In this document: positions 7,079 through 56,161 of the stretch, piece by piece | Numbering within the stretch: the first letter of the stretch is position 1 | How the letters are laid out: the number at the start of each line of letters is the position of its first letter | From: Bacteroidales bacterium | GTDB taxonomy: Bacteria; Bacteroidota; Bacteroidia; Bacteroidales; WCHB1-69 | Length of the DNA stretch: 64,000 bases | Direction of reading: 5' to 3' | NCBI GenBank assembly: GCA_017395245.1 | Contig: JAFPVR010000114.1 | Coordinates: 645 to 64,644 of the forward strand | The notes under the pieces: generated by a model | The model's input: the letters and a program-made list of their open reading frames with translations, nothing else | The model's database searches: none | Told to the model about the DNA's origin: nothing | Position numbers and translations under genes: made by a program

Positions 7079-7256
7079 AGGTTCCACACTGCGCTGCGTT
7101 TGTGTCACAGTCTCCACACTGCGCCGCGCCTTGTCGTTATCGCTGTCTCCGCAGTCCGGACTTTTCTGTCTTGTCAAGCCCCACACTACGGCTTCGCCTT
7201 GTGTGGGGTTAATTGCGCTTCGCGCGTTTTGCCTCTCCGAGGCTGCTCAAGGAAGA
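7079..7256 (-). repeat. structured 5'-leader repeat L1 (expanded; extra degenerate CCACAC modules)
   Basis: The core at 7179-7256 is gccccacactacggcttcgccttgtgtggggttaattgcgcttcgcgcgttttgcctctccgaggctgctcaaggaag. Two degenerate hairpin modules lie at 7082-7178. It ends 14 nt before ATG 7065. Confidence 0.8.
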
Positions 7257-7267
7257 TGATATTTTAT

Positions 7268-7275
7268 TATTTTTG
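7268..7275 (+). promoter_or_regulatory. -7 box (TATTTTTG)
   Basis: 16 nt upstream of ATG 7291, which implies a very short leader. Confidence 0.5.
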
Positions 7276-7290
7276 CCGAAAAAATGATTT

Positions 7291-7629
7291 ATGCAGGTAC
7301 TTACTGAAAAAATATCAAGAGAACAACTTAAAGAATTGGCATCCAATACTTTCATTGATATGATTAAGTGTGTGGCCGATGTGAGAAAAGGTCTTCTTGC
7401 TGTAGATGCAGAGCTCCATGCTGACTTGGAGTCGATGTTACTCGAGAACGGTTCGGAGCAGGAAAATCTTTGGGGTTTCAACCTGTATCCAGAAGAAACA
7501 GGGGATGACTTCATTGAATTCGACTCCTTAATCAATATCCGTTCTTGGCAAGGCAACCGCAGCCGTGATGTTGAGAATCCAGAAGTCAGGGAACAAATAA
7601 AATCCATCGTTTCAAAATTCGTTGAATAA
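7291..7629 (+). CDS. small conserved hypothetical protein (112 aa; possibly DUF5674-like, recalled from memory only)
   Basis: ORF follows a TATTTTTG box at 7268-7275. Its stop overlaps the next start (TAATG, 7627-7631). Confidence 0.6.
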   Translation: MQVLTEKISREQLKELASNTFIDMIKCVADVRKGLLAVDAELHADLESMLLENGSEQENLWGFNLYPEETGDDFIEFDSLINIRSWQGNRSRDVENPEVREQIKSIVSKFVE

Positions 7630-10335: not shown

Positions 10336-10364
10336 AAGGTGGGTCTGTAGAGACGCGCATGGTG
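10336..10364 (-). repeat. GTAGAGACGC-family hairpin
   Basis: TGTAGAGACGC-gcatggt-GCGTCTCTACA, an 11-bp stem. Lies between the ABC ATPase stop (10415) and the FtsX start (10308). No U-tract. Confidence 0.6.
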
Positions 10365-10414
10365 CGTCTCTACAAAATCCCTTCAATATGTTATTAACCA
10401 AATTTAATATGGCA

Positions 10415-11123: not shown

Positions 11124-11215
11124 GCCCCACATTACGCTCCTCCGTCGCTCATGTGGGGTTATTAGCACTTCGTGCGTTTTGTCCCTCCGGGACTGCTCAA
11201 GGAAGTGGTTATTAT
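11124..11215 (-). repeat. structured 5'-leader repeat L2
   Basis: All three stems are changed by compensatory pairs (CCCCACAT/ATGTGGGG, GCAC/GTGC, GTCCC/GGGAC). 29 nt before ATG 11095. Confidence 0.8.
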
Positions 11216-11234: not shown

Positions 11235-11283
11235 AAATCTCAAGTCTTAAATCTCAAGTCTTAAGTCTCAAATCTCACGTCTC
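11235..11283 (-). repeat. 7-nt tandem array (7 units; gene-sense GAGAyKT/AAGACTT) overlapping the FtsX stop codon
   Basis: Plus strand: aaatctc aagtctt aaatctc aagtctt aagtctc aaatctc acgtctc. The stop tca is at 11282-11284. Confidence 0.85.
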
Positions 11284-13630
11284 AATTCGCTTTCAGCGCC
11301 CTCGCGGGGTTGGTCTTCGCTGCTCGTAACGTCTGCCATAACACCGAGAGGAAGGCCAGCAACAGGGTGACCACAACCGCCACGACAATGATCCAGCCGT
11401 AATGTTCGATTCGGTAGGCGAAACGTTCCAAGTATTTGCCGCTAAGCCAAACCGCAATGGGAGCTCCGATGATGGCGGCGATTCCGACGAGCATCATATA
11501 ACTCTTCACCGTGCGCAGCAACTCGCGGTTGACATCGCTGCCGAAGACCTTGCGGACGGCAATACTGTGGCTTCCTTCATCGCAATAGTAGGTGCTCATG
11601 GCGACGAGGCCGAGCAGCGACAGCAACACCGACAAGCCCATGAAAATCTCCAACAGCCGCACGGTGCGCTTGGCTGGCTCCAACGACTTAAGATTCAGGT
11701 CGTCCACATAACCGCAATCGTCCTGTCCCGCAAAGGGTTCCCCATCCTTTTCCGCCCACTGCTGGCACTGTTTCAGGATAATCTTCCGAGCCTCCGAATG
11801 GTCGCCGATGGTTCTGACAAATAGATCGCTTGCCCATGTCAACTTCCGGGTTTCCTGTACCAGTACACCCACGTTCTGGTTGCTTAAGCCATCCGGAGAG
11901 GCCGCGCTCTCCCCCGGGAAATCTTTAAGCATTCCGCCGATGTAGTCGGCATCCTGATTCATCATGATTGCAAGTTTTTTCGGCATGGTAACGGAAGTGT
12001 CAGAAGCCCCGCTTTTGGCAAAGGCGTGTTCACCAAGCCAGAGCGAGTTGGCGAGTGGATGGCCGAAATCTTCCACCACTTCGAAACCTAACATGCGAAA
12101 ATAAGCGCTGTCACCGATGAGCAACTTCAAGATAAAATCTTCCTCGTCCAAACGTATGCCGACAGAATAAGCCGCGCTTCCGGGAAATCCTCGCCCTATG
12201 CCAACCTCTTTGACACAAGGCAGTTGCGCTATTTCATCGGCTAAAGTAGCCAAATGAGGCACAGAATACCAGATGCCGCTGATGTAAAACAAGTCTTTCG
12301 TGTTCGCATGGGTGGGACGCCTGATCATGTGCCACATCTGAACCTCCATCACGATGGCAATGGCTATCAGTATAACAGACAGGACGTTCTGGAAGACGAT
12401 GAAGATTTTGTTGAGCCACATCTTGCTGTGATGGCGAAATGTACCCCGCACCACATCAATGGGTTCGTAATACGATGCATACAGTGCGGGTAACCATCCC
12501 GAGAGTGTTCCCATCAGCAAGATTCCGCTCAGATACGCGACTATATAAGTCGGTTTCGTCATCAACTGCAATTGAATGTCGCTTTCCGGTGTTGCACTGG
12601 CCAACAGCCAGTTCATCACGGGAACAAGGGCGTGAGCCAACAAAAAGGCAAAACCGAAACATACTGCCGTGAACAACACAGATTCGATAATAAGTTTGCC
12701 CATGACGGAGAGTTTCTGTGCCCCCAAAAGCCTGCGGGTAGCCATCTCCTTGGCGCGTTTACCCACCAAAGCCATATTGAGGTTGACGTAGTTGATGAGT
12801 GCCGACAGAAGGAGAAGGAACACCACCGCCGACAATATCCGTATGCTGCTGAGGTTGCCGCTGCGTAATACATAATCGTTCTCAGTGCGGAAGAACATCT
12901 CCTTGAAACTGAATATTTTAAGTTCTTTATTTATCCACGATCCATAGTTTTGACGGCATACTTCAAGTATTTGTGCCTTGAAATCTTCTTCGTTGGTGTT
13001 TTCCATCCTGCGAATAAAGGTCTTCGTGCCGTCCACGCTGTGGAAAGGTTCGCGCCCAGCCCACCATTTCTCATTCACCGGAATCAATACATCAATGTGG
13101 GCAACCAAGGTGTTTTCCGGACCATCCATAATGCCGCAAATGATGTATTCCTCATCCTCTCCTTCTATGACGAAACGTTGTCCTATAAGGTCGCCCTTTT
13201 TCTCCAGACTGTTCGCGAAACTCCGGCTGACAATGGCGTTATGGGTGCCGTCGAACGGGATGGCTGTGCCCTCCACAAGGCTAAACTGGGGAAAGATCTT
13301 GAAGAACTCCGCATCCACCTGACGAACTTCCGCTTCATAGTTTTTTTTGTGGTAAGAAATCTCGTCGGTGGCATAGCCAAAGCGAGCTATAGCCTCGATT
13401 CCAGGCACCTGCGCTTCGATGGAGGACTTATCCCACACTGAAAGTCCCAAGTTGGAGGTGGTGCCGAGGCCGTAAATGCGGTCATGGCCAGGTTGCTGAT
13501 ACACGACGGCCAGATGTTGGGCCACGTAACTGCCGATTAGGATGACGAAGGCGAGGCTCACGACGAGCCCCACCGCTTCGACGGCGGTGTAGAGTTTGTT
13601 GCGACTGAGGAATTTGAGGTAGCTCTTCAT
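11282..13630 (-). CDS. ABC transporter permease, FtsX/MacB-like
   Basis: ORF 11282..13651. Start moved to ATG 13630 (MKSYLKFLSRNKLYTAVEAVGLVVSLAF...). Same architecture as 4672..7065. Confidence 0.85.
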   Translation of the reverse strand: MKSYLKFLSRNKLYTAVEAVGLVVSLAFVILIGSYVAQHLAVVYQQPGHDRIYGLGTTSNLGLSVWDKSSIEAQVPGIEAIARFGYATDEISYHKKNYEAEVRQVDAEFFKIFPQFSLVEGTAIPFDGTHNAIVSRSFANSLEKKGDLIGQRFVIEGEDEEYIICGIMDGPENTLVAHIDVLIPVNEKWWAGREPFHSVDGTKTFIRRMENTNEEDFKAQILEVCRQNYGSWINKELKIFSFKEMFFRTENDYVLRSGNLSSIRILSAVVFLLLLSALINYVNLNMALVGKRAKEMATRRLLGAQKLSVMGKLIIESVLFTAVCFGFAFLLAHALVPVMNWLLASATPESDIQLQLMTKPTYIVAYLSGILLMGTLSGWLPALYASYYEPIDVVRGTFRHHSKMWLNKIFIVFQNVLSVILIAIAIVMEVQMWHMIRRPTHANTKDLFYISGIWYSVPHLATLADEIAQLPCVKEVGIGRGFPGSAAYSVGIRLDEEDFILKLLIGDSAYFRMLGFEVVEDFGHPLANSLWLGEHAFAKSGASDTSVTMPKKLAIMMNQDADYIGGMLKDFPGESAASPDGLSNQNVGVLVQETRKLTWASDLFVRTIGDHSEARKIILKQCQQWAEKDGEPFAGQDDCGYVDDLNLKSLEPAKRTVRLLEIFMGLSVLLSLLGLVAMSTYYCDEGSHSIAVRKVFGSDVNRELLRTVKSYMMLVGIAAIIGAPIAVWLSGKYLERFAYRIEHYGWIIVVAVVVTLLLAFLSVLWQTLRAAKTNPARALKAN

Positions 13631-13644
13631 ATATTTTTGTTTTA

Positions 13645-13718
13645 GCCCCACACTGCGCTTCGCTTGTATGGGGTTATTAGCGCTTCGCGCGTCTTGCCTC
13701 TCCGAGGCTGCTTAAGGA
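13645..13718 (-). repeat. structured 5'-leader repeat L3
   Basis: 15 nt before ATG 13630. The single stem change gives a U-G wobble in gene-sense RNA and a C-A mismatch in antisense. Confidence 0.8.
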
Positions 13719-14120: not shown

Positions 14121-14156
14121 CGAATTCTATTCTAAAAAAGCATATACTATCCCCAT

Positions 14157-14198
14157 CATTCATAATTCATAATTCATAATTCTTAATTCTTAATTTCC
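14157..14198 (-). repeat. 7-nt tandem array (6 units; gene-sense AAGAATT/ATGAATT) overlapping the HlyD stop
   Basis: Plus strand: cattcat aattcat aattcat aattctt aattctt aatttcc. Stop at 14183-14185. Confidence 0.85.
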
Positions 14199-15445
14199 AA
14201 CACTTCCGCCTCCCCATACCCGTCATACGACGACGTAATCACCCTCTCGCCCGGCTCCAGTCCTTCCAAAACCTCGTAGTACTGCGGATTCTGGCGACCG
14301 ATGCGTATCTCTCGCTTCACGGCACGTTTGCCGTCGGGGGAGACCACGTATATCCACTTGCCGCCGGTCTTTTGGTAGAAGGCGCCGCGCGGGATGAGCA
14401 CCGCCTCCACCGGCTGACCGAGCTGCAGGTTCAGGTAGAACGTCTGACCGTTGCGGATATTTTCCGGCTGACCGTCCGCAAATTTGAAGTCGGCCTTGAA
14501 CTTGCCGTCACGAACCTCGGGATAGACCTTGCGTATCAGCACGTTGCACTTGTCGCCCTGCCGCTCGAAGTCGGCCTCCAACCCTGCCGTCACCCGGTCG
14601 ATGTAGTGCTCGTCAATCAGGGCCTCGATCTTGTAGTTGTCCTGATTGTTAATCTGTCCGACCTTACTGCCCATCGCGACAGACTGTCCGAGCACCACAT
14701 CCACCAGGCCAAGTTCCCCGTCAATCGGAGCCTTGATGGTGAGATTGTCTTTACGCTGCCTAATCATCTGCATGTTGAGTTTCATGTTCTCCAAACTTTC
14801 GTGCATCTGCCGGATCTCCACCGAACGGTAGAGGCTGTCTTGCTTGGCGCGGTTCTCCACCAGCGTGAGGCGGTCTTTGGCCAACTGGTAGTCCTCCTCG
14901 GCCTGCAGAAAAGCCTCTCGGGCTATGAGGTTGTCGTCGTACAGCGACTTCTGCGCCTCGTAGGTGCGTTTCTTGCGGCGCACCTCCATCTGCAGCTGCA
15001 ACTTTTCCTGCTGCAGGGTCAGCTTCTGCTGCTCCATCTGGATCATCGTGTTGCGGAGGATGTTCTCCTTTTCGGCCAGGTCGGCTTCAGCATTGAGAAT
15101 CTGCATATCAAGACTTTCGTTGCTGAGTATCAGGATGATGTCGCCCTCACGGACGTGTGCGCCCTCCTCCGCGACGATTTCCTTCACTACCCCACCCTCC
15201 AACGGGCTAAGCTGCACGGTGGTCATCGGCACCACGCGCCCGCTCACGCGGATGTAGTCGTTGAACTCGCCCCGCCGCACCTCGCTGACGGTGATGGCTT
15301 CTCCGCCCACACGCAACTTCCTGGCGTCATCGCGCAGTGCCAGCCACCCGATGAAGACGAGCAGCAGTGCCCCGCCCCAGTAGGGCAACGCCTTGCGGGT
15401 GAAGAGTTTCCGGAATCCTTTTTTTTGCTCTATCGCTCTATCCAT
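14183..15445 (-). CDS. HlyD-family / efflux periplasmic adaptor subunit
   Basis: 420 aa with an N-terminal TM anchor, a long coiled-coil (QQEKLQLQMEVRRKKRTYEAQ...) and beta-barrel/lipoyl-like flanks. Located between the TolC-like and ABC genes. Confidence 0.85.
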   Translation of the reverse strand: MDRAIEQKKGFRKLFTRKALPYWGGALLLVFIGWLALRDDARKLRVGGEAITVSEVRRGEFNDYIRVSGRVVPMTTVQLSPLEGGVVKEIVAEEGAHVREGDIILILSNESLDMQILNAEADLAEKENILRNTMIQMEQQKLTLQQEKLQLQMEVRRKKRTYEAQKSLYDDNLIAREAFLQAEEDYQLAKDRLTLVENRAKQDSLYRSVEIRQMHESLENMKLNMQMIRQRKDNLTIKAPIDGELGLVDVVLGQSVAMGSKVGQINNQDNYKIEALIDEHYIDRVTAGLEADFERQGDKCNVLIRKVYPEVRDGKFKADFKFADGQPENIRNGQTFYLNLQLGQPVEAVLIPRGAFYQKTGGKWIYVVSPDGKRAVKREIRIGRQNPQYYEVLEGLEPGERVITSSYDGYGEAEVLEIKN

Positions 15446-16960: not shown

Positions 16961-17030
16961 CATTACATACTTCATTCATAATTCATAATTCTACATTCTT
17001 CATTCTACATTCCTAATTCTTAATTATCAG
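16961..17030 (-). repeat. 7-nt tandem array (~10 units; gene-sense NNGAATK) overlapping the EamA stop
   Basis: Plus strand: cattaca tacttca ttcataa ttcataa ttctaca ttcttca ttctaca ttcctaa ttcttaa ttatcag. Confidence 0.8.
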
Positions 17031-17900: not shown

Positions 17901-17975
17901 GCCCCACACTGCGGCTTCGCCTTGTGTGGGGTTATTTGCGCTCCGCGCGTTTTGCCTCTTCGAGGCTGCTCAAGG
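17901..17975 (-). repeat. structured 5'-leader repeat L4
   Basis: 16 nt before ATG 17885. Confidence 0.8.
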
Positions 17976-22923: not shown

Positions 22924-23000
22924 GCCCCACACTGCGGCTTCGCCTTGTGTGGGGTTAATTGCGCTTCGCGCTTTTTGCCTCTTCGAGGCTGCTTAAGGAA
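22924..23000 (-). repeat. structured 5'-leader repeat L5 (archetype)
   Basis: Gene-sense sequence: TTCCTTAAGCAGCCTCGAAGAGGCAAAAAGCGCGAAGCGCAATTAACCCCACACAAGGCGAAGCCGCAGTGTGGGGC. 22 nt before the argS ATG at 22902. Confidence 0.85.
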
Positions 23001-23029: not shown

Positions 23030-23059
23030 TGTAGAGACGTGCCACGGCGCGTCTCTACA
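23030..23059 (-). repeat. GTAGAGACGC-family hairpin
   Basis: tGTAGAGACG...CGTCTCTACa, downstream of the FKBP stop (23118) and just before leader repeat L5. Confidence 0.6.
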
Positions 23060-26633: not shown

Positions 26634-26661
26634 GTAGAGACGCAAAATTTTGCGTCTCTAC
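26634..26661. repeat. GTAGAGACGC-family hairpin (perfect 14-bp palindrome)
   Basis: GTAGAGACGCAAAA/TTTTGCGTCTCTAC, overlapping the ALDH stop at 26658. Sits between convergent genes. Confidence 0.6.
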
Positions 26662-31259: not shown

Positions 31260-31299
31260 GCATTTTTAATGGATATTGGATTTGGTATTGAAAAAGTTT

Positions 31300-31446
31300 A
31301 AGTCTTAAGTCTCAAGTCTCAAGTCTTAAGTCTCAAGTCTTAAGTCTCAAGTCTTAAGTCTCAAGTCTTAAGTCTCAAGTCTTAAGTCTCAAGTCTTAAG
31401 TCTTAAGTCTTAAGTCTTAAGTCTCAAGTCTTAAGTCTCAAGTCTC
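31300..31446 (-). repeat. 21-unit perfect-period heptamer array AAGTCT(T/C) (gene-sense RAGACTT)
   Basis: 147 bp with no indels and only T/C alternation at position 7. Lies between the DUF3667 stop (31472) and the FISUMP promoter box (31259-31252). Confidence 0.95.
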
Positions 31447-31471
31447 AAATTATCCCGTCGTTTCATTGTCT

Positions 31472-32436: not shown

Positions 32437-32469
32437 TATAAAAATGGGGAACCCTTTCGAATCCCCCAT
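32437..32469 (-). terminator. intrinsic terminator of thrS
   Basis: Minus sense reads ATGGGGGATTC-GAAA-GGGTTCCCCAT followed by TTTTATAA. Confidence 0.7.
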
Positions 32470-32504
32470 TAGTCTCAAGTCTCAAGTCTTAAGTCTTAAT
32501 TCTC
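32470..32504 (-). repeat. 7-nt tandem array (5 units, RAGACTT family) overlapping the thrS stop
   Basis: Plus strand: tagtctc aagtctc aagtctt aagtctt aattctc. Stop at 32496-32498. Confidence 0.85.
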
Positions 32505-37582: not shown

Positions 37583-40500
37583 TTACAGCACCGTAATACT
37601 TCCCACCAACTTCTGCGGCCGTCCTGCCGTGTCCGTGTACTCAATCACATAGTTGTAAATCGTCTGATACTGGGTCTGGCCACGGTACTCGCCGTACCAA
37701 CGGAAATTCTTGTCCGTGCTGTAGAAGACCAGCTCGCCCCAACGGTTGTAGATGTAGACCTTGAAGAGGTTGATGTTGGAGGTGAAACCTTCCGGAATGT
37801 AGAAACAGTCGTTGAGGCCGTCCCCGCGTGAGGGGGTGATGGCATTGGGAAGCACAAGCTCGTAGTGGCAGCCTTCCACCCGGATATGCGCCGTCGCGCT
37901 GCAGCCACCCTCCGTGGCTGTCACCGAGTAAATGCCCGGCGATGTCACCACGATGGTCGTGGCTGTTTCGCCCGTGCTCCATACGTAGTCCGTCATCGGG
38001 CTCAAAACTGTCAGCGAGGCCTCGTTGTACTCGCAGAAGTCTTCCGTCAGCATCTCAATGCGCAAGGCCGTGTCAATGATTGTAAGCTGCAACGTCACCA
38101 CGCTGTCGCAACCATTGACCGTCTGCAGGTTCTGCACGCGTGTGAGCTCACCCGCCCCTATCGTCTCCTGCGGGCTGATGGCGAAGCCGTTCGCGTTGTA
38201 GCCCTCACCTTCGCAGACCGTGGCTTCGACAAGTTCAGCCACCACTGGGTTGACCGTCAAAAGCAGGACAACCATGCTGTCGCAGTGACCTGTGGCATGG
38301 TGTTGCTCGAAGGTGTAAACGCCCGCTTCCACAGTCTGATCCGCAGTAACATCAAAGTTGTATTCTGTATAAGTTTCACCTTGGCAGACACTTGCGGTAA
38401 CCGTATCGACAGAATTCGGCCATACATTGACCGTCACTACATTGCTATAGACCGTGCCGCAACTCTGACTCACCCATGCGCGACGCAACGAGAAAGCGTA
38501 GGCCGCGGTGTTCGGATAGGTGTAGCCCTGGGCATTGGCCGTACCGGGCGCAGGAGCCCAGTCCGTGCCGTTCGTGCTTATCTGCCACTGGTAGCCGCCA
38601 TTGTTGCCGCCCGAAGCCACCGTGCCCGTGAAGGGGGCAATGTCCTCGCCGTCGCACACCTCCTGCGAGGCGGCGATAGTGCCGGGTGTCAACTCGCCAT
38701 TCAGCGTATTGAGCGTCACCGTAGCGGTGGCTGTACAGCCAATGTGGTCTGTCACCGTGAAGGTGTACGTCCCCGCCGGACGGTTGCTGATGGAGGTTGT
38801 CATGGCGATATTCGTACCCGAGGCGTTCGTCCAAGCGTAGGTCATCGGGGTCTGCCCGCCTGTAACCGAAGCTGTGGCAGAACCCGTGGATTCGCCGTAG
38901 CAGGTGATGTGGGTGACATTACCGATGTTGGCAGAAATATTGTCCACAGAGAGGTGATACGTCACCACGCTGTCGGCCCCGTGCGAGGTGAGCAGCGTCA
39001 CCACGTGCGTGCCCGCCGCCGTGAAACTGTACCCGTGCCAGGTGTACGGCAGGTCGTCGGCGCAGACGGTGGTGTCGACGGTGGTCGTCACGTTCTGATA
39101 TACGGTCAGATGAATTGTCAGGACGCTGTCGCAGCCGAGTGTGTTTGTGAAATTTTGGGTGTAGGTGCCCGCTTCGATATACGAGATTTCGTTATATTGA
39201 AGGGGCAGGGCATTTTCGATGACAGCCGTGTCGATTGTGGCGTTCGTGACATGGTTCACGGTCAAATGCATCGTCACCACCGAGTCGCAGCCGAGAACAT
39301 TGGCATACGTATGCGGGTAATCGCCGGAAGTGGTGTACGTCACGCCACTCCATACAAAGCTTTCGCATACAGTGGTATCCAGCTCCGAATAGACGGAGGC
39401 CCGGAATGTGACGACAACCGAGGTATCCACCGAGCATCCGGATGTATCATAAATAGTGAAAGTATAGACAATAGTGGTGTCGTGGTCGAGATCCGCCGGC
39501 GGTTGGATGGTGAAGACCGAGTCGTTTACGGGTGTCACCCACGGACCTTGCGCTGTGGAGTAGTCAAAGACAAAGGTTGCTTCCGGCAACGCTTCGGTAC
39601 TCAAGGCCAATTCCCAACCGAAGATGTAGCCGTTGTCCACGCTCCAGCCGTCCATCACCTCGATAAACCAAGAGCCGTTCAGCGGACAACCTATCAGGTT
39701 GCTAAACGAATCGTCGGGATGGTAGAAGTGCGTGCCGGCCGCCACATTGGAGGAATCAACAATGCCATTATGCTCGTTTTCAGCACGGTAAATCAGGCTT
39801 CCCTCGCCCGGCGCATACGTGTAGCCCTGCGTAGTGTTGTTCGACCAGCAGTAATTCCATCCATTGCCCGGTTCGTTTCCAAAAGCAGTCGGGTCGCAAG
39901 TGCTCACGGAATAGTCGTATGCATCCCCTAAGAAGGTGCCCACATCCAGATTTGATCCGCTCTGCCAGCCGCGCGACGAAGGCGCTATCTGCGAGTTGCA
40001 ACTTGAACTACCCCAGCCTCCATATTTCAACAAATCCGCTTTTTGTCCATTGGGACAGGTGATATTAATATAAAGGTCGCCAATCCAGGAGTGCTCCATG
40101 TTGAGACGCACGTAGTAAATGTCGTCCACGCTCTCTATCGTGTCGCCGGGGGCGTAGGCCGAGAAGGTCAGCGGCGACTGGTAGGAACAACCGTATGGGT
40201 CACAGGAATATCCGTCGGGCAGGAAGATGGTGTCGGACAAAGTGAGCGTTGTCTCCCGGTTGCCCAAGAGGATATTGCTGCCCGGCTGGTAGCCCACCGT
40301 CACTGTATAAGCGCTGCCCGCGCAGAGCGAAGTGTCTATATCCACCGAAATGATCGGGTCATAAGTGGATGATACATAGTGTTCTGCGGTAACAGAGCAT
40401 CCGTAATTGTCTACTACCGTCACCGAGTAGAGACCTGCGGCGGTCACCGTAATGGACTGTGTCGTGTCGCCGGTATTCCACATATAGGAAGAGGCGTAGT

Positions 40501-43500
40501 CGGCGGTAAGGGCCACCGACGAATCCAAACACATCACAGAAGGACCTGCAATATGGTACGGAATGACGGGATAGGTGTTCAGCGTCATCACCACCGTGCT
40601 GTCCGCACCGGTAGCGGCGGCAAGGACCGCGTTCTGTGTGCCTGTCTCTGTAAAAGTGACCCCGTTCCAGGTGAACGGCAGCTCACTTTCGCAAACGGTG
40701 GAGTCAATCTCGGATGTCACGTTGGGGAAGACCGTCAGCGTGAGGGTGAGGATACTGTCGCAGCCAGAGACATTTGTTAAATACTGGATGTAAATGCCTT
40801 CTTCGATATACGAGATTTCGTTATATTGATAGGGCAATGCGTTTTCGACAATGGCCGTGTCGATAGTGCCGTAGGTGGTCGGAAGCATGGTCACCGTCAT
40901 GGTGATGGTGCTGTCCGCACCGGTATGGGCCAGGATGGTGGTCGTCTTCGTGCCCGCCACCGTGAACACGCTGTCGTTCCACGTGAACGGAAAGGCGGTT
41001 TCGCAGACGGCGGAATCGAGCTCGGAAGTGACGTTGGGGAAAACATTTAGGTTAACTGTCAGGATACTGTCACAGCCTGAAGCATTTGTTAAGTATTGGG
41101 TGTAGATGCCGGCTTCGACATACGTGCTGTCGTTATATTGATAAGGCAGGGCATTTTCGATGACGGCCAGTGTCACCGTGCCGTAGGTCGTCGAGGATTC
41201 CGTCACCGTCATCACCACTACGCTGTCCGCGCCCGTGGCGGCCTGCAGCAACACGCTGTCGGTGCCCGCCGCCGAAAACACCACGCCGTTCCAGGTAATC
41301 GGGAAACCGCCCTCGCAGACGATGGAATCCACCTCGACCATAACGTTAATCTGGAGGGTAAGAACACTGTCGCAACCCGCTGCATTCGTCAGGTATTGGG
41401 TGTAAATGCCAGCTTCGACATACGTGCTGTCGTTATATTGGATGGGCAGGGTGTTCACGTTGACGAGGGTGTCGAATGTGCCGTAGGTGGTCGGGAGCAT
41501 CGTCACCGTCATGGTGATGGCGCTGTCCGCACCGGTGTGGGCCAGAATCGTGGTAACTTTCGTACCGGCTTCCGTAAACACGCTGTCGTTCCATGTAAAC
41601 GGGAAGGCGGTTTCGCAGACGGCGGAATCAAGTTCCACTATAACGCCAAGATGGAGGGTGAGAATACTGTCGCAGCCGGCCGCATTCGTCAGCAATTGGG
41701 TATAGATACCTGCTTCGACATACGTGCTATCGTTATATTGATAGGGCAAGGCGTTTTCGATGACAGCCGTGTCGAAGGTGCCGTAGGTGGTCGGAGTCAC
41801 CGTCAGGGTCATCACCACGGTGCTGTCCGCGCCTTCTGCGGACAGAATGGTGGTGGTCTTCGTGCCCGCCGCCGTGAACACGCTGTCGTTCCAGGTGATG
41901 GGCAATTCGCCTTCGCAAACGACGGAGTCAACGAACGTGGTCACGTTCTCGTAAACATTGATAACGACGGTAAGGACGCTGTCGCAGCCGGCCGCGTTCG
42001 TCAGGTATTGGGTGTAGGTACCGGCTCCGGCACACGTACTGTCGTTATATTGATAGGGCAAGGCATTTTCGATGACGGCCAGCGTCACCGTGCCGTAGGT
42101 CGTCGGGGATTCCGTCACCGTCATCACCACCACGCTGTCCGCGCCCGTGGCGGCCTGCAGCAACACACTGTCGATGCCCGCCGCCGCAAACACCACGCCG
42201 TTCCAAGTGATCGGGAAACCGCCCTCGCAAACGACGGAGTCGAGATAGTTCGTCACGTTGGGGTAAACCGTCAGGGAGAGGGTGAGGATGCTGTCGCAAC
42301 CGGCGGCATTTGTGAGGTATTGGGTGTAAGTGCCGGCTTCGACATACGTGCTGTCGTTATATTGATAAGGCAAGGCGTTTTCGACAACAGCCGTGTCAAA
42401 GGTGCCGTAGGTGGTCGGAAGCACGGTGAGATTCATCGTGATGGTGCTGTCCGCGCCGGTGTGGGACAAGATCGTGGTCATTTTTGTTCCCGCTGCAGTG
42501 AAGATGCTGTCGTTCCAAGTGATGGGAAGCTCGCCCTCGCAGACGGTGGAGTCGATTTCAGAAGTCACATTCGGGAAAACCGCCAGGGTGAGGGTGAGGA
42601 TGCTGTCGCAGCCTAAAGAATTCGTCAAATATTGGGTGTAAGTACCAGCTTCGATATACGAGATGTCGTTATATTGATATGGTAGGGCATTTTCGATGAC
42701 GGCCGTATCGAAAGAGCCATAGGTAGTCGGAATCATCGTCACCGTCATGGTAATGGTGCTGTCCGCGCCCGTGTGGGCGAAGATGTTGGTCGTCTTCGTG
42801 CCTGCCGCCGTAAATACGCTGTCGTTCCAGGTAAACGGGAAGGCTGTTTCACAGACGGCGGAATCGAGCTCGGAAGTGACATTGGGGAAGACCGTCAGAG
42901 TGAGCGTGAGGATACTGTCGCAGCCGGCAGAATTCACCAGCATCTGGGTGTAGGTTCCGGCTTCGACATACGAGATTTCGTTATGTTGATAAGGCAGGGC
43001 ATTTTCGATGACCGCCGTGTCGAGGGTGCCGTAGGTGGTCGGAATGACGGTCAGCGTCATCGTGATGGTGCTGTCCGCGCCGGTATGGGCCGGAATGGTG
43101 GTCGTTATCGTTCCTGCTGCATTGAAGATGCTGTCGTTCCAGATGACTGGGAGCTCGCCTTCGCAGACGGTGGAGTCAATTTCAGCGGCAACATTCGGAA
43201 AAACCGTCAGGGTAATGGTGAGGAGGCTGTCGCAGCCGGCAGCATTTGTCAAGTACTGGGTGTAAGTGCCTGCTTCGACATACGTGCTGTCGTTATAGTG
43301 ATAGGGCAAGGCGTTTTCGACGATGGTCGTGTCGAAGGTGCCGTAGGTGGTCGGGACTACGGAAACATTCATCACCACCAGGCTGTCCGCACCGGTGGAA
43401 GCCGTCAAAATGGCCACCAGCGTGTCCGCCTGCGTGAACGTCACTCCGTTCCAGATGAACGGCAGCGCACCCTCGCAAATGGTGCTGTCCGCCGCATTGG

Positions 43501-46500
43501 TCACGTTGCTCAGCACATTCAACACAATGGTCAGCGTACTGTCGCAGCCCTCTGCATTGGTCAGCAATTGCGTGTAAGTGCCCTCCCCATAATAAATGCT
43601 GTCGTTGAGATGATACGGCAGGTTGTTTTCCAGAATGGTGATGGTCAGGGTGTCGGCAGTGGCCGCATGCACCGTCAAGGTCAGCGTCACCAAACTGTCG
43701 CAGCCATGCACGGTGGCGAACGGATACTGGATAACGGACCATGCGGGCGTTCCAACACCGAAAGTCGTATCAATCAAACCGTTGACATAGTGATACGGCA
43801 GGTCATTCTCGCAGAGGGTGAGACTGGTATCGGTGAAAGCGGAGTGGTTCACCGTCAAATGCAGCGTCACCACCGAGTCGCAACCGTTGGCCGCCGTGAG
43901 ATAGTAGCGACTGGTATCGTTGCTCTCGTAATAGGTCACACCGTCAATCCACGTCAGCGAGTCGCACACCTCAACCTCATAAACGGAACTGGCAACCGGC
44001 ATGCCCGCCAAAGTCAGATGCACCACACTGTCGCAACCGTCAACTGTCGGGAGGGTGATGAGGTGGGTGCCCGCATCTGCGAGGAGCGTATCGTGGTAAA
44101 GGTACGGGAAGTCATTGACGCAAACCCCGATGGTGTCCGCCACCTCGTAAACAGGCAGGAAAACGAGTCGCAGCACCGTGGTACTGTCGCAACCGCCCGC
44201 CGCCGTGTCGTGGCGGATAAACAGGTCGTTGCTGTCGGAAACGTTCGTCAGCTCAAAGCCGAAACGGTTATATTCGGTAATATTGGCGCACAGCGTGTCA
44301 TAAATCTGCACGTAGCTGTATTCCTGCGGGTAAAGGGTCCGGCACCAATTCAGCTCGCCGCAACCGCCAGTGGCCGTGACGCAGATGTCCATCGAATCGG
44401 CATAGACCCCGAACAGCAACGTAATACTATAGGGATCCTCTACCGGCAGCACAATGAGACTGTCGGGCACTGTCCACACCACATTCTGCAACCCTGAAAG
44501 GGAATCGATCGTGTAGGTGTATTCGCCACCCTGGCAAGGCCAGCCCTCGCCCTCGATGGCGGGCGGATTGTCCGTGTTGGGTGTGACAGAAAGCTGCAAA
44601 ATAACCAGACTGTCACAACCATAACTGTCATGCCCGGCCACTATCGTATCCTGATAAAGTCCAGTCTCTGTTGGGGTTATATCAAATCCATACGTTGTAT
44701 AATGATTATTGACACAGATGGTGTCTTCTATAATCCGATAGTTTTCACGCACCTCCAACTCCAAGACATAGGTGCTGTCACAATAACTCGACTCGGAGTT
44801 CGCACTGCGGGTGAAGGTATGGTGGCCCGCTGCGGGTGTCAGCACTTCGAAGCCATACCCCAAATAGTCTTGACCCTGACAAATGGAATCGTAATAGGTG
44901 ATGGTCGGACCCTCCACCACGCGGATGCGGGCATAAAGGTTCGAGCAGAAGACCGCGCCGTTGCTGGTGATGTAGAGCGTGGCAGCCACCGTGTAGGTGC
45001 CCGCCTCAGCATAGCTATGAACCGTCTGCATGCCGGTCACCGTCGGGGTGCTGTCGCCGAAATTCCAGACCACGCTGTCGCAAGGATAGTTGACTTCCAC
45101 ATTGAAGTTGATGGGCTCATACGGACAGAACTTGGTGCCCGGCGGCAGGTCGGTGTTGAGGATACCGTTCACGTAGAGCTGCTCTTTGAGCGGTACGGCC
45201 TTAGAACCAGCAGCATAGCCGTACGACTCGTGGAAGCCGAGGCCGTAGCAGTGGGCGATGAAGCCACCGTCGCAATGCAGCGTGTGCGTGCCGTTGGCGA
45301 TATGCCGGCGCACGAACGCGTAAGAGGTGTTGCCGACCACGGGTGCGAACTGCCCACCGATATTGACACCGTCGAGGGTCACGCCACTGGTTTCGGCAGC
45401 CGGCACCACAATGTTGACGTAGTGGTCGGTGATGCCCGGCGAGTTGAAGGTTGCAAAGGTGATGTCGTTGAGCATCTGCTCGGTAGGCGGAATCCAAACC
45501 ATCGACGGGTCACTGCGTTCCCGCGGATTGCCCTGCACGGCACCGGCAATGTAGAGATAGACACCGACAGGCTCGGAAGTCTCCAAATAGCAGGAGCCCT
45601 CGTTGCCGGGAAGCTGGAATTCATACGTCTGGCGCGACTGGATAGTGGCCAGCAGCGTGCCATTCTTACGGATTTCAGTGTTGTCACGCAGCGCAGTCAC
45701 CCGCACCACATCAAAATTCTGACTCTCCGTGGAGGTGATGGCAAAATTGCGGCCCCAATACTTGACGCCGATGGCCTGCTCCACCAAATGGTCGGAGTAG
45801 GAGTTGTCGATGGGCACCAGAGCGCAGACGTTGCCGTTGAAGACCGCCACCGGCTTGTTGTCATGCGACTGGATCAGCGTACCCGACAGGTCGCCGAGCG
45901 TGCCGCCATACTGCGACAACCCGAGGTAGGTCTGGCCCGCCTGCAACGTCACCGTGAAGGTCTGCTGCGCGGGATGGCCGCCCTGCAACGCCCGCGACGG
46001 CGTGATGTCCACCTCCGTGTTGTCCACCGTTGCCACAATGACGAACTCCGCATTCATCATCGGCATGTAGGTTTGCAGGACATATTCGTCGGACAAAGCC
46101 TCCACAGGCAGCACGTCGGTGACATCAAAGCTGCTGGTGTTGTAGTTGGCGGCATAGACCGACACCGAATCTGTGGTCTCCACCAAGAGGCCGAAATCGC
46201 CCGCCACATCCGCCACCTGCGGATAGGCCTGCGACACGGGGATTGTGACAGTGGTCACGGAATGGTCGGCGACGGCAAACGGCATACTCCAGCCGGTGCG
46301 CGGGTTGCTCACCGTACCGGTACAAGCGTCCTCAGCCGAAATGTTCAGCGTAATCGTGGGCGTGTGGAAGTGGTTACGCAGATACGACAGCCAGAAGGTC
46401 TTGCCCACCGATGCCGGCGAGCCCAACGAATCGGACAACATCGACGACGGAATCACATACACCGATGCCGTATCGACGCACTCGCCGCCGTTGCTGGCAA

Positions 46501-49500
46501 TGACCGTGTATTCCGTCGGCAAAAGCGGAGACACCTGCACCACATTTGTGTCCTCGTTGCTGTGCGACCAATAGTAATGCTGCGCCCCGGGCGTGGCCGT
46601 GAGCTGGATGTAGTAGCCTTGACAGTTGTCAGTGGGCACCTCCAAAGCGTAAACCGTGGTGTTCAGCGTCTCGAACGTCACCTCATAAGCACCCTGATCC
46701 ACGATATTGCCGCAGGCGATGCGCGGGTCATCCTTCAAATCTGTGGGCCATGAAACCCATTGGTTGTCACCCGCATCCACCGCCGGCGACTGTGCCGTCA
46801 GCGTGTAATCGTCGGCATCGTTCGTGAAAACGCCAGGCGTGTCGTCCAATAAATTGTGGTCGCCGATAATGTTGCCGCCCACGTTGAGCGCATGGCCGGG
46901 GTTGTAGATGACAATGTTGTTGTACATCCGCAGTTTCAGTGCGTTGGTGATGGAATCGTTACCGCCGGTACCCGTGGTGTCTGTGCCGGAACCGCCGCCA
47001 GAGCCACCGCCTCCGCCGGGATCACCGCCGGAGCCTCCACCGGAACCACCTTCGTTAGAACCTCCACCAAAATCGTCACCATTGACCGCATAAAGTTCAA
47101 CCGTATCGTGCGAGCGCAACTCGTATGCACCGATGTCGATGACCTCTGCGAAGATACGGTCTTTCGTGACCATATCCTTCGACCAGCTTGCGCAATCGTT
47201 ATTTCCCTGATTGACCGCCGGGGAATTCGGTCGCGGCCGATAGTCAAAACGCCGGTCAACAAACAACGTGTCATGGACACCTACAATATTATAGGCAGGA
47301 ACCTCATCAAGGTTAATGTCCTGCGAGTACTTGTTGTTGACAATTATATTGTTACACAAGACCAGAGCATCCGTATCCAACGTCAAAACCGTTGTAAGTT
47401 TCTGCGTGTCAATATATTGTTCAAAAGCACCTATATCCACAATTTCCTCATAGATACGAATATTGTCCTCCATATCACTTCCCCACCCCACACAGGCGTT
47501 GCTGCCGGCATTCACCGCAATACTCGTCGGACGCAAACGGTAGTTATAATCGTTATCCACAAACAGCGTATCATTGTCCAACACAATATTGTTTTCAGGT
47601 ATATCACTAATATTCAGATTGTTGGAATACTTGTTATTGATAATAATATTGTTGCAGAGCGTCCAATCCGTACCAGTTTCATCCCCAAGGAAGGCGATGG
47701 CCGTATCATACTCGACCCGAGGCTCGAACGCGCCGATGTCGATAACGTTCTCATAGACACGGGTTTTCTCGCACAGGTCGGAAGCTAACGTGCAACAGAT
47801 GTTGTCACCCGCATTGACAGCCGCAGAACTCGACCTCGGCGTGTAGTCGTAGATGCTGTGAACGAACAAATCCTCGCCTGCGGAGAGAATATTGTGCCCC
47901 GCATCCACCTGGGCGTTCGTGCTGACCGCATTCGGATTGTTGACGATAATGTTGTTGCAGAGCGTCAGCGTGTGGTTCTCTTTTTGCAACACGGCGACCA
48001 CGGAATCCTCCTCCGCGGTGGATTGTTCAAACGCACCGAAATCAATGGTATCCTGATAGATACGATTAACATCAGCCATATCCAAGCCCAATAGACAGCA
48101 GTCGTTGTTGCCCACGTTGATGACAATGGAGTTCTCTCGCGGCGTGTAGTCCAGCACATTGTCGCGGAACACGTCGTGATGATCCACCAACAAGTTGAAA
48201 GCGGAAACCTCGTCATCGCTCACGGGGTTGGTACCGCTGTTGTTGATAATAATGTTGTTGCAGAGGTTCAGCTGATGGCCTTCCCGCCCGTACACCACAA
48301 AAATATCGGAATCGGAGAAGTGGGTAATCTCATACGCGCCGATGTCAATGATGTCCATGTAAATACGAGCGCCATCCTTGAGGTCGGTCGCCAACGGACA
48401 GCAATCGTTGTTGCCCTGGTTGACCGCCGCACTGGTCGGACGAGGCATATAGTTCAACTCGTTGTCCCTGAACACCTGATTATTGTCAATCAACAGATTG
48501 TTGCCCGGCGTGTTCATGTCGTTCACGCTAAAGGAACGCATATTGTTGATAATGATATTGTTGCAAACCGTCATCTGATGGTTTTCCTCCTGGAACACCG
48601 CCACATACTGCGGCTCCGGCCAGAACTCAAAGGCGCCGATGTCAATGGTATCTTGAATAATACGATCACGCTTGGCAATATCCTCCGGCAGGTCGTTGCA
48701 GCCGTTGCGGCCCCGGTTCACGGCAGGAGAGACCTCAATCAGCCGGAAATCATGATTCGCGTCGCGGAAAATCGCCACGGTATCCTGAATCAAATTGCAA
48801 TACGCCGTGTCGAAGCCGAACCAGGTGTTCGTGTTGGCAGCAAAACGATTGTTGACGATGATATTGTTGCAAAGGTACAAGGAGGCGGATGTCCGTTCGC
48901 AAACGATGCCGTTGTAGTCGGGATCCATGTAGCCACCACCGTCGCCTCCCCAGCTGCCACCGCCGCCGCCGCCACCGCCACCTCCGGCATAGTTGGTGTC
49001 GTAATAAACGGGGTTTTCGAACGCACCGATGTCGATACGGCCACCGCTGATACGGGTTACCGTGTCAATATCGGTGGACAGACCGTTACAGCCGTTGTCG
49101 CCGGCATCCACTGCGTCGGAGTGCATAGTCAGACGGAAGTCCAAAAGTTCGTCGCGGAACACCTCCACGAGGTCGTTGACGATGTTGCTTTCCGGCACCG
49201 GCGAGAAGTTGACGTTGGGCGCATGCGGCGAGTTCAGAATGATGACGTTATTGCAGAGATTCAGCGTGGTGCCGGAATCCTGATACACCACCGCCCGCTG
49301 GTTGTCAATGTAAATCTCGAACGCGCCGAGATCAATCACTTCATGCAGTACACGTGTCGTGTCCACCAGATCAAACGCCCACGTACAGCAGGGATTCGAA
49401 CCGGCATCCACGGCAATAGAGCCATCCAACAACTTGTAGTTCTGATACTTGTCAACAAAGACATAGTCATTGTCCACCGTTAAATTGTGCGGACCCGCCG

Positions 49501-52521: not shown

Positions 52522-52596
52522 CTCCACACTGCGCTCCGCTTGTGTGGAGTTAATTGCGCTTTGCGCGTTTTGCCTCTCCGAGGCTGCTTAAGGAAG
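52522..52596 (-). repeat. structured 5'-leader repeat L6
   Basis: Stem CTCCACAC/GTGTGGAG shows a compensatory change. 33 nt before ATG 52489 and only 15 nt after the preceding stop at 52612. Confidence 0.8.
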
Positions 52597-54353: not shown

Positions 54354-54535
54354 TTCACCCAGGGCTCACTTCGTTCACCCTCACCTCTCCTTCACCCAGG
54401 GTGCTCACTTCGTTCACCCTCACCTCTCCTTCACCCAGGGCTCACTTCGTTCACCCTCACCTCTCCTTCACCCAGGGCTCACTTCGTTCACCCTCACCTC
54501 TCCTTCACCCAGGGCTCACTTCGTTCACCCTGGGC
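54354..54535 (-). repeat. 37-39-bp tandem repeat, 4 full + 1 partial units, in the leader of FISUMP 52612..54309
   Basis: Unit is ttcacccagggctcacttcgttcaccctcacctctcc (unit 2 has +tg). In gene sense each unit can fold as (C/G)AGGG-TGAACGAAGTGAG-CCCTG. The promoter-proximal partial unit (first in gene sense, 54504-54535) has a 7-bp stem, CCCAGGG/CCCTGGG. Confidence 0.9.
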
Positions 54536-54546
54536 TGACATACGAC

Positions 54547-54569
54547 GCCCTTACAGGGCTTTCAAGGAA
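54547..54569 (-). repeat. divergent leader-repeat 5' module (TTCCTTGAAAGCCCTGTAAGGGC)
   Basis: Shares the TTCCTTGA boundary and a GCCC-TGTAA-GGGC hairpin. Here the 37-bp tandem array takes the place of the usual hairpins. Confidence 0.45.
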
Positions 54570-54587
54570 TTATGTTTCAATATATTA

Positions 54588-54596
54588 GGGGGGGGG
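54588..54596. repeat. G9 (C9 in gene sense) homopolymer tract
   Basis: Sequence attaGGGGGGGGGtaacg. Intergenic, just upstream (gene sense) of an AT-rich box and the TTCCTTGA leader boundary. Confidence 0.9.
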
Positions 54597-54607
54597 TAAC
54601 GTTTACT

Positions 54608-54642
54608 CATTCTTCATTCTTCATTCTACATTCTTCATTCTG
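54608..54642 (-). repeat. 7-nt tandem array (5 units; gene-sense NAGAATG) immediately after a FISUMP stop
   Basis: Plus strand: cattctt cattctt cattcta cattctt cattctg, then the stop tca at 54643. Confidence 0.85.
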
Positions 54643-55986: not shown

Positions 55987-56002
55987 GCCCCATTCTTCGC
56001 GC

Positions 56003-56115
56003 GCCCCACACTGCGGCTTCGCCTTGTGTGGGGTTATTTGCACTGCGTGCGTGTTGCCTTGCCACCCCGCCCTTCGGGCACCCCTCCAAAGGAGGGGAAT
56101 TGGCTGCTTAAGGAA
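56003..56115 (-). repeat. structured 5'-leader repeat L7 (module-swapped variant)
   Basis: The CCCCACAC hairpin and the GCAC-TGC-GTGC hairpin are kept. The GCCTC hairpin is replaced by GCCC-TTC-GGGC plus CCCCTCC-AAA-GGAGGGG. 17 nt before ATG 55986. Confidence 0.75.
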
Positions 56116-56117
56116 AT

Positions 56118-56161
56118 CATATTCAGCATTCATCATTCAGCATTCATCATTATACATTGAA
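56118..56161 (-). repeat. 7-nt tandem array (~6 units; gene-sense NNGAATG) immediately after a FISUMP stop
   Basis: Plus strand: cattcat cattcag cattcat cattata cattgaa, then the stop tca at 56162. Confidence 0.8.

Follow-up and report, generated by a model that had tools for sequence, protein, structure and literature searches.

A three-hairpin intergenic repeat of uncultured rumen Bacteroidales, strongly sense-biased at gene junctions without promoter boxes

Introduction

Several families of intergenic repeats are transcribed together with the genes that they separate. Many enterobacterial repetitive extragenic palindromes (REPs), such as that of malE-malF, are co-transcribed inside operons and can stabilise the upstream segment of the mRNA, the transcribed ERIC/IRU and Neisseria Correia repeats have an orientation-dependent effect on mRNA stability, processing and termination, and the pneumococcal BOX elements (boxA, repeated boxB, boxC) have predicted stable folds and are co-transcribed with neighbouring genes. 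Intercistronic REPs, ERIC, Correia and BOX would be the closest functional analogues of the element described here, a repeat of about 80 bases with three hairpins that recurs in a 64,000-nucleotide stretch of a Bacteroidales bacterium (assembly GCA_017395245.1, contig JAFPVR010000114.1, positions 645 to 64,644 of the forward strand), the whole of which is called the window below.

The likeness is partial in each case. Like REP and BIME sequences the element consists of GC-rich extragenic hairpins, with probably hundreds of copies per genome, many of them inside operons, and it shows turnover between relatives, but unlike a REP it has three distinct hairpins in fixed order and about 96% of copies are in sense orientation. 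With BOX it has in common a modular intergenic design of a fixed 5' module and variable tandem internal or 3' units; this is a likeness by description, across phyla, in which no sequence relationship is expected, and we know of no report that BOX elements are confined to promoter-less operon junctions or have a 96% orientation bias. ERIC and Correia are imperfect palindromes of 100-150 bp or are bounded by terminal inverted repeats, forming one long hairpin cleaved by RNase E or RNase III, whereas the present element is built of three hairpins with stems of only 4-8 bp and lacks terminal inverted repeats. The formal definition of a REP is a single 20-40-nt palindrome with a 5' GT[AG]G foot, often in inverted pairs flanking the gene of a REP-associated tyrosine transposase (RAYT), and the same survey describes 'atypical secondary structures' near genes of RAYT subclass 2.6 in Bacteroidetes and, in Solibacter usitatus, some 600 structured repeats associated with class 3 enzymes (PMC6006769). 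Repeats of the heptamer TAACTGA in Beggiatoaceae, Cyanobacteria and some Bacteroidetes are oriented, adjoin the starts of unrelated genes where Shine-Dalgarno sequences are little used, and have been assigned a proposed post-transcriptional role (MacGregor 2015, PMC4679880); such repeats are unstructured 7-nt direct repeats, not hairpins, and form a separate module that shares the gaps of the present element.

Here we weigh several readings of this element. On balance we think it probable, if by no means assured, that it is a structured repeat, modular and high in copy number, which is carried within operon transcripts and has a modest role in cis; it looks like a spacer within such transcripts and not like a gene-specific switch.

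Results and discussion

The window was scanned with a pattern in which the unpaired blocks are fixed and all stems are left unconstrained (CCTTRAGCAG-N11-CAARA-N12-WAWTAAC). Six matches are found, all on the minus strand (7208-7252, 11158-11202, 13673-13717, 17931-17975, 22954-22998 and 52549-52593), and dinucleotide shuffles of the window give none; the chance expectation for such copies is none. A covariance model (R1), run on the window with filters off, gives these six copies 91.6-106.1 bits, a seventh (56002-56102) 57.7 bits and a divergent copy (54506-54577) 22.9 bits (E = 2e-4), the best score in the rest of the window being 10.5 bits. There are thus seven clear copies, L1-L7, and one divergent one, all on the strand that codes for nearly all genes of the window. 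An earlier note on this DNA, made from the letters alone, had placed these eight copies and taken them for a true repeat family, and both scans agree with it.

Over one genome per species the same pattern occurs in at least 110 stretches from at least 23 species-level assemblies. Among the matches listed, 21 assemblies are labelled Bacteroidales or Bacteroidetes, one is a short contig labelled Synergistales and one Fibrobacter, two labels that we infer to be binning errors, and all hosts sampled are ruminants (cattle, yak, goat, sheep, reindeer and red deer). The element belongs to an uncultured rumen Bacteroidales lineage and not to Fibrobacter, a host that the FISUMP genes could wrongly suggest. 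Contigs that encode an identical arginyl-tRNA synthetase (ArgRS) are present in several ENA metagenome assemblies, with DNA 99.6-100% identical, and 2.9 million viral contigs hold no match to the pattern. In an 875-kb set of loci, whose members carry three-digit labels (L006, L104 and so on), nhmmer finds 170 matches, 143 of them full length. The number of copies per genome is probably in the hundreds, an extrapolation from the eight that are already present in 64 kb.

Rfam 15 has no match to the canonical copies at gathering score, either in the whole window or in 142 kb of loci with about 35 copies; a permissive scan of the focal copy, L5, returns only noise (E above 1), and a full-text literature search for the sequence words of the element returns unrelated primer matches only. 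The earlier note, too, had recognised no named RNA motif. The repeat is a genuine, previously uncatalogued family of structured intergenic repeats.

The architecture is well seen in L5 (22923-23008, minus strand, counted from its A-rich lead-in through hairpin 3), the copy with the highest R1 score (106.1 bits). A 5' single-stranded tail, TTCCTTAAGCA (22990-23000), which is the module common to all sub-families, leads into hairpin 1, GCCTC-GAA-GAGGC (22977-22989), for which 99.5% of cells pair in the family alignment. Hairpin 2, GCGC-GAA-GCGC (22961-22971), contains the covarying pair 40-46, and hairpin 3 (22925-22954) has an 8-bp stem, CCCCACAC/GTGTGGGG, an AA/GCA internal loop and an inner GGC-GAA-GCC. 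The predicted RNA fold of this copy, at -32 kcal/mol (z = -4.6), agrees with the consensus three-hairpin structure. It ends 21 nt upstream of the argS ATG (22902), the product being ArgRS by Pfam.

Alignment of 121 copies (2299 stem cells, counted as sequences and not as substitution events) indicates that this structure is maintained. Stem cells are paired in 98.7% of cases, against 91.9% in column shuffles and 25-55% when the partners are slid by 1-3 columns, and 216 cells are changed on both sides against 73 in shuffles, a value that none of 500 shuffles reaches. The variable pairs are clean two-state switches, as in hairpin 1 at 21-31 (CG 83, UA 36) and 23-29 (UA 62, CG 59), hairpin 2 at 40-46 (GC 62, AU 54), hairpin 3 at 63-82 (CG 86, UA 25, UG 9) and 61-84 (CG 94, UG 22, UA 1), and the inner stem at 67-77 (CG 79, GC 39). 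RNAalifold, to which no structure was supplied, recovers the same three hairpins. The comparison of copies at orthologous junctions provides a partly independent check, and here 98 of 117 base pairs that differ between orthologues stay paired (70 by double and 28 by single changes), 19 showing a mismatch. The view of the earlier note that compensatory changes preserve the stems is therefore upheld, and its individual examples are correct: L2 has compensatory variants in all three stems (GTCCC/GGGAC, GCAC/GTGC and CCCCACAT/ATGTGGGG), L6 has CTCCACAC/GTGTGGAG, L7 has GCAC/GTGC, and hairpin 3 of L3, CCCCATAC/GTGTGGGG, contains a U.G wobble on the sense strand only.

All loops are GAA, GGA, GCA, GTA or GNNA, with the first G and last A fixed and the middle free, and at internal positions of hairpin 3 the gene-sense strand has 32 G.U against 3 A.C combinations (p = 4e-7). 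Since G.U so outnumbers A.C, and given this GNA/GNNA loop signature, the structured strand is the gene-sense strand, as had been proposed from the window.

Genes were called by codon usage and the critical neighbours verified with Pfam. Between co-directional genes the count is 119 sense to five antisense copies (p = 2e-29), and 127 of 132 copies have the sense of their adjacent gene, the share for non-adjacent genes of those loci being 80% (p = 4e-8), so that the orientation is non-random well beyond the window from which this had been claimed. The distance from the upstream stop codon has a median of 38 nt, with about a third of copies at 0-14 nt, and is no looser than that to the ATG (median 33 nt), so that the element is not specific to 5' ends. 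The five antisense copies, among which those of L096 and L109 are orthologous and therefore one event, stand 5-58 nt past a stop codon with 90-124 nt left to the next start, which is how a terminator at an operon end with a promoter behind it would look. The strands are too alike in GC skew at four-fold sites (-0.179 vs -0.164) for replication-linked and transcription-linked orientation to be told apart.

As a promoter marker we used TAnnTTTG, the Bacteroidetes -7 box, which marks 79 of the 94 gene sides that face divergent gaps and is most frequent 21-50 nt ahead of the ATG. Where a co-directional gap holds a sense copy (median length 171 nt), the box occurs in only nine of 119 cases (8%), compared with 39 of 82 (48%) for copy-free co-directional gaps of 100-300 nt, and the difference between size-matched gaps is strong (Fisher p = 7e-11). 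Shorter copy-free gaps have the box in 43% (60-99 nt) or 15% (<60 nt) of cases, and gaps with an antisense copy in four of five. A box between hairpin 3 and the ATG is seen in only four of 133 copies. Sense outnumber antisense copies 110:1 in box-free gaps but 9:4 in gaps with a box (p = 4e-4). The density of the element follows the same division, being 4.25 copies/kb in co-directional gaps without a box (32% of gaps hold a copy), 0.39 in those with one (11%), 0.33 in convergent (9%) and 0.13 in divergent gaps (4%); these absolute fractions are inflated, the loci having been chosen for holding a copy, although the choice was blind to gap type. In the window itself copies are found in six of 15 box-free co-directional gaps, one of seven with a box, none of three convergent and one of three divergent gaps. 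Nearly all sense copies thus sit where the downstream gene has no promoter box of its own, and would lie inside operons. The rule of placement that results is unusually sharp, with sense copies within operons and antisense ones at their ends.

This position bears directly on the proposal of the earlier note that the element is a leader at the 5' end of the downstream mRNA, a terminal stabiliser or protein-binding structure on transcripts starting at about TTCCTT. Copies are indeed sense-oriented and near the ATG, some occupy divergent gaps (L1, L006 and L078), TAnnTTTG lies about 25-30 nt upstream of TTCCTT in L006 and about 100 nt upstream in L014, and the 5' tail with hairpin 1 is the most conserved part and common across sub-families. 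Nevertheless a -7-like box ending 5-20 nt upstream of CCTT is present in six of 139 copies, compared with 4.0 in shuffles, and a -33/-7 pair (TTTG with TAnnTTTG) upstream of the element in two of 139; a Bacteroidetes sigma-A promoter module fixed upstream of TTCCTT was rejected, the box being hardly commoner there than in shuffles. Moreover the box is wholly missing from 92% of co-directional gaps with a sense copy, 45 of 139 copies begin within 20 nt of the upstream stop codon, three have no downstream gene, and hairpin 1 begins at least about 9 nt after TTCCTT, so it would not be a flush 5'-terminal stem. We therefore regard a 5'-terminal leader as very unlikely, and for most copies this part of the proposal is not supported. 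Of the three roles that the note suggested, the operon-internal one fits best. Its argument from L1, that the element goes with the 5' ends of genes, holds as far as the divergent gap is real, with a genuine DUF5674 gene on the other side, but fails for the three copies that stand at 3' ends.

The same gaps could be explained if the element were itself a promoter of non-canonical type, or a platform for an activator or alternative sigma factor, with transcription starting just after hairpin 3. Gaps with the element lack the canonical box, its 3' end lies 15-40 nt from the ATG, in the zone where other genes have their -7 boxes, its orientation points at the gene, and the copies L1 and L078 stand in gaps that need a promoter in which none was found. 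However the compensatory changes, GNA loops and G.U asymmetry are marks of a single-stranded structure, not of a duplex site, and the spacing of the blocks varies through hairpin-3 loops of 12-22 nt, a 38-nt insertion and exchanges of hairpin 2. Some copies are convergent or antisense, and the unpaired blocks conserve no motif resembling -33/-7. We consider this reading very unlikely, about as much so as the 5'-terminal leader.

The sequence between the hairpins suggests how an operon-internal repeat could acquire its orientation bias. In the sense direction A-rich linkers come after the hairpins (AAAAC, AATTAA and lastly the gene's A-rich leader), whereas in antisense UUAAUU and GUUUUG follow them; a terminator scan marks sites on the antisense strand of copies (7200-7226, 17923-17949 and 22947-22971) and none within copies on the sense strand. 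An intrinsic terminator in sense was rejected, no GC-rich hairpin with a U tract being flagged there. If the element is transcribed as part of the polycistronic mRNA, RNA polymerase would read through the sense form with its A-rich linkers, and the reverse form with U-rich linkers would be terminator-like and tolerated only at operon ends. The purging of this terminating orientation inside operons would then produce the bias.

In sense, the most likely role would be a passive punctuation of the transcript. The block of stable hairpins may shield the 3' end of the upstream cistron and the 5' end of the downstream one from exonucleases after cleavage, and by locking up GC-rich spacer sequence may keep structure out of the A-rich start region beside it, as the ribosomes of Bacteroidetes need. 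The gap between the last hairpin and the ATG has a sharp minimum of about 15-16 nt, and this spacer is 52% A and 14% G, with A at 63-70% from -14 to -11 and 63% at -3; the start region is A-rich and has no Shine-Dalgarno sequence. In Flavobacterium johnsoniae initiation depends on A at -3, -6, -12 and -13 and on an unstructured start region (PMC6847099), and the composition of the spacer agrees with these measured rules. The note's claim of a short distance to the start codon stands in the window for the last hairpin of each copy (13-32 nt), L1 being included only if its partial hairpins at 7079-7176 are counted, as its core ends 112 nt from the ATG.

How far the host profits from the element depends on its evolution. 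The downstream proteins form 27 similarity clusters with at least two members, mostly orthologues in different metagenome-assembled genomes (MAGs), so a copy is found at the same junction in several species, with no variation in the distance to the ATG within some clusters. Between orthologues the identity is 0.81 for the element, 0.59 for four-fold sites, 0.53 for the 60 nt upstream and 0.43 for the spacer; the value for the element is about the same as between any two random copies. The 5' tail with hairpin 1 is the most conserved module and heads variant families with other 3' modules, its TT being conserved in 95-98% of copies though the search pattern did not demand it. In some orthologous copies hairpin 2 is replaced by AGCTC-GGTA-GAGCT; L063 and L082 have identical spacers and different hairpins 2, and L068:708 and L2 of the window have spacers 93% identical and a different top of hairpin 3. 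Hairpin-3 units multiply in tandem after canonical copies, and three copies (L7, L015:6308 and L026:1093) have a foreign 38-nt module inside the loop of hairpin 1. Such module exchange points to ectopic gene conversion or re-copying, and spread and refreshment of the element would proceed by some copying or gene-conversion process.

Other rearrangements were seen alongside these. The 38-nt module, AATTCCCCTCCTTTGGAGGGGTGCCCGAAGGGCGGGGT, has two small hairpins, one of them GAA-capped, also stands free directly ahead of many copies, and looks like another small structured module that is mobile. At L065:5086-5172 the 15-nt loop of hairpin 3 is exactly reverse-complemented between its 8-bp arms (TGCGGCTTACGCCTT for AAGGCGTAAGCCGCA), a DNA-level inversion across the stem, and L033:7280-8000 contains a tandem non-coding repeat of about 510 nt with partial, tail-less copies and runs of GCAGTGTGGTG units.

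These observations, with the high copy number, are in keeping with a second view, in which the repeat is purely selfish mobile DNA of REP or MITE (miniature inverted-repeat transposable element) type, its hairpins serving as single-stranded DNA signals for a transposase, e.g. of the HUH/Y1 type, its orientation and position marking only where insertions are harmless, and the host gaining nothing. Frequent presence/absence turnover, tandem and partial arrays, nested modules, the loop inversion in L065, and the copies at 3' ends or in antisense would all be expected of such DNA. The GNA loops are classic stable DNA mini-hairpins, and the antisense copy of L098 retains the U.G on its own strand, so that the strand asymmetry travels with the element, a point taken from five antisense copies only. 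Convergent gaps, however, where selfish repeats usually find refuge, hold less than a tenth as many copies per kb as promoter-less operon junctions, and copies persist at orthologous junctions with 98.7% pairing while four-fold sites are only about 0.5-0.6 identical. The element has no GT[AG]G foot, no close inverted pairs and no terminal inverted repeats; viral contigs contain no pattern match; a six-frame regular-expression search for the HUH/Y1 (RAYT) motif gave none in 875 kb, which amounts to about 2% of these genomes; and a separate canonical double-foot REP is already present in them. We see the purely selfish reading as a real but doubtful alternative. The mobile MITE or REP that the earlier note had named as the finding that would speak against its proposal is partly borne out, in that presence and absence vary, but not in the random orientation it implied.

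Several results also weigh against an operon-internal role useful to the host. Hairpin modules swap faster than the neighbouring spacer mutates, and under ectopic copying the conservation could reflect selection among elements and not host benefit. The element is dispensable: 54 pairs of orthologous genes have it in both members, 48 are discordant, including proteins 97-99% identical, and 86 lack it in both, and copy-free junctions work with a spacer as short as 50 nt. The downstream genes have no functional theme, nor are secreted or membrane proteins with signal peptides enriched among them (42% vs 49%). Three or four copies are at 3' ends in convergent gaps, and three of these (L081, L031 and L090) lie just after the co-directional gene and face the 3' end of a verified gene (TonB_C, Por_Secre_tail and YoeB), with no downstream gene to lead, and those of L1 and L078 are in divergent gaps without recognisable promoter. 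Co-transcription itself is deduced from the missing promoter boxes. Finally the structured form could be single-stranded DNA, as the data fix the strand and do not distinguish RNA from single-stranded DNA, and d(GCGAAGC) is best known as a DNA mini-hairpin.

A stronger functional view than passive punctuation may also be considered, in which the element is a dedicated intercistronic expression signal of a lineage that makes no use of Shine-Dalgarno sequences, and a protein or the ribosome recognises the conserved UUCCUURAGCAG tail with the three GNA-capped hairpins, thereby setting processing sites, initiation on internal cistrons, or both. It would be a bacterial counterpart of the protein-bound intercistronic elements of chloroplasts. 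We judge such a signal unlikely.

Further candidates were tried and rejected. A gene-specific cis-regulatory leader (riboswitch, attenuator or ribosomal-protein leader) does not agree with the lack of a single gene family or pathway downstream. REP/REPIN does not apply to an element that is no single palindrome and has neither the GT[AG]G foot nor close inverted pairs; hairpin 1 instead has a GCAG foot in all 121 aligned copies, a motif that the search pattern itself required, and of the copy pairs within loci 54 share a strand and eight do not, none of them forming adjacent inverted dimers. For a MITE the ends, TTCCTTRAGCAG and GCAGTGTGGGGC, are not reverse complements. When filled and empty orthologous sites are aligned no target-site duplications are seen; the entire gap differs, other repeat modules occupying the space. 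An integron attC site would require GTTRRRY at the 3' end and a cassette context, both absent, and the flanking syntenic housekeeping genes (e.g. argS) stay in place when the element is missing. Likewise there is no closing acceptor stem as in tRNA-like punctuation, the stems of 4-8 bp are too short for an RNase III site, and a trans-acting small RNA gene is contradicted by the lack of a promoter and of a terminator in sense.

The remaining copies of the window, all on the minus strand, show the variety of settings. By Pfam the downstream genes encode two FtsX/MacB proteins, an ABC ATPase, EamA, ArgRS and three FISUMP proteins, which confirms the earlier description of unrelated genes with one FISUMP protein more; elsewhere N-terminal sequences add TsaD-like and IspD-like proteins, lipoproteins and others. 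The core of L1 (7177-7262, 104.5 bits) is in a divergent gap between an FtsX/MacB gene (ATG 7065, minus) and the DUF5674 gene (ATG 7291, plus), both confirmed by Pfam, the open reading frame at 7291-7629 (+) with E = 5e-51. By inspection its 3' extension (7079-7176) consists of extra partial hairpin-3 units (...GCGCAGTGTGGAG..., ...GCGCAGTGTGGAA) and stops 13 nt before the ATG; extensions of this type are conserved upstream of FtsX paralogues in L012, L104, L029, L077 and L092. The -7 box TATTTTTG of the DUF5674 gene (7263-7290, +) directly abuts the antisense end of L1, and the FtsX (sense) side of the gap has no box of TAnnTTTG type.

L2 (11123-11212, 91.6 bits) lies 28 nt upstream of the ABC ATPase ATG (11095), L3 (13644-13727, 101.6 bits) 14 nt upstream of the second FtsX/MacB ATG (13630), and L4 (17900-17985, 102.4 bits) 15 nt upstream of the EamA ATG (17885), the orthologue of which in L091 is without the element. 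L6 (52520-52603, 98.7 bits) occupies a 122-nt gap between FISUMP genes, starting 15 nt past the upstream stop, just as the earlier note had it, and ending 32 nt before the next ATG (52489); this gap contains no TAnnTTTG box. L7 (56002-56121, 57.7 bits) has the 38-nt foreign hairpin module at about 56064-56101 in the loop of hairpin 1. The divergent relative (54506-54577, 22.9 bits) has two hairpins, GCCCT-GTA-AGGGC and then CCCAGGG...CCCTGGG, behind the same TTCCTTGAA leader as canonical copies. Its terminal hairpin is repeated in five tandem 37-nt units, identified by inspection (54358-54533), which reach the A-rich leader of a FISUMP gene (ATG 54309) and parallel the tandem hairpin-3 units after canonical copies.

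The only Rfam match in the window, Acido-Lenti-1 (RF01687; 54508-54560 on the plus strand, 38.9 bits against a gathering score of 37), is marginal and overlaps this divergent relative on the non-coding strand of the genes, while none of the seven canonical copies scores. Acido-Lenti-1 is a two-hairpin motif of unknown function, annotated also in Tannerella (Bacteroidales), and it is possible that this family is a repeat read on the wrong strand.

Other repeats share these gaps. The double-foot REP, GTAGAGACG-N10-CGTCTCTAC, is present in 36 copies in 875 kb, three of them in the window as palindromes of 27-28 bp (10347-10373, 23031-23058 and 26634-26661) with one or two mismatches in the arms of some. 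These REPs lie mostly 4-30 nt past stop codons, and one replaces hairpin 2 in L101:5511; the type is that listed for RAYT subclass 2.4 (PMC6006769). Tandem arrays of 7-nt units (AAGTCTY, TTCATAA and others) fill many gaps, usually right after the stop codon, and in the window are found at 31290-31462, 11235-11290, 14154-14204, 16970-17030, 32467-32500, 54593-54641 and 56119-56167, with AGTTAGC, GAATGAA, GAATTAA, GGCAATA and CAATGTA as units in related loci. Most units contain a stop codon, so three of them stop every frame, and gaps may differ in their type of unit even where the flanking proteins share 97% identity. The arrays resemble the TAACTGA heptamer repeats mentioned above. Two giant open reading frames on the minus strand, 37583-51130 (4515 residues) and 58548-63932 (at least 1794 residues), are built on repeats of about 104 residues (300-312 nt) and have repeat families in common.

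Conclusions

A covariance model of the family would improve annotation, as the element is not in Rfam and occurs in at least 23 ruminant MAG species, and would also flag a likely cause of assembly breaks, while the orientation rule could help the prediction of operons in uncultured Bacteroidales. Should the repeat prove merely selfish, it would still provide a clean example of transcriptional polarity filtering where and how a repeat persists. If instead it is a dedicated signal, about a third of operon junctions would be under one post-transcriptional system. In the operon-internal reading that we favour, about a third of promoter-less junctions would be filled by one structured RNA module, giving a handle on how the Bacteroidetes, with ribosomes that ignore Shine-Dalgarno sequences, express and balance the internal cistrons of their operons.

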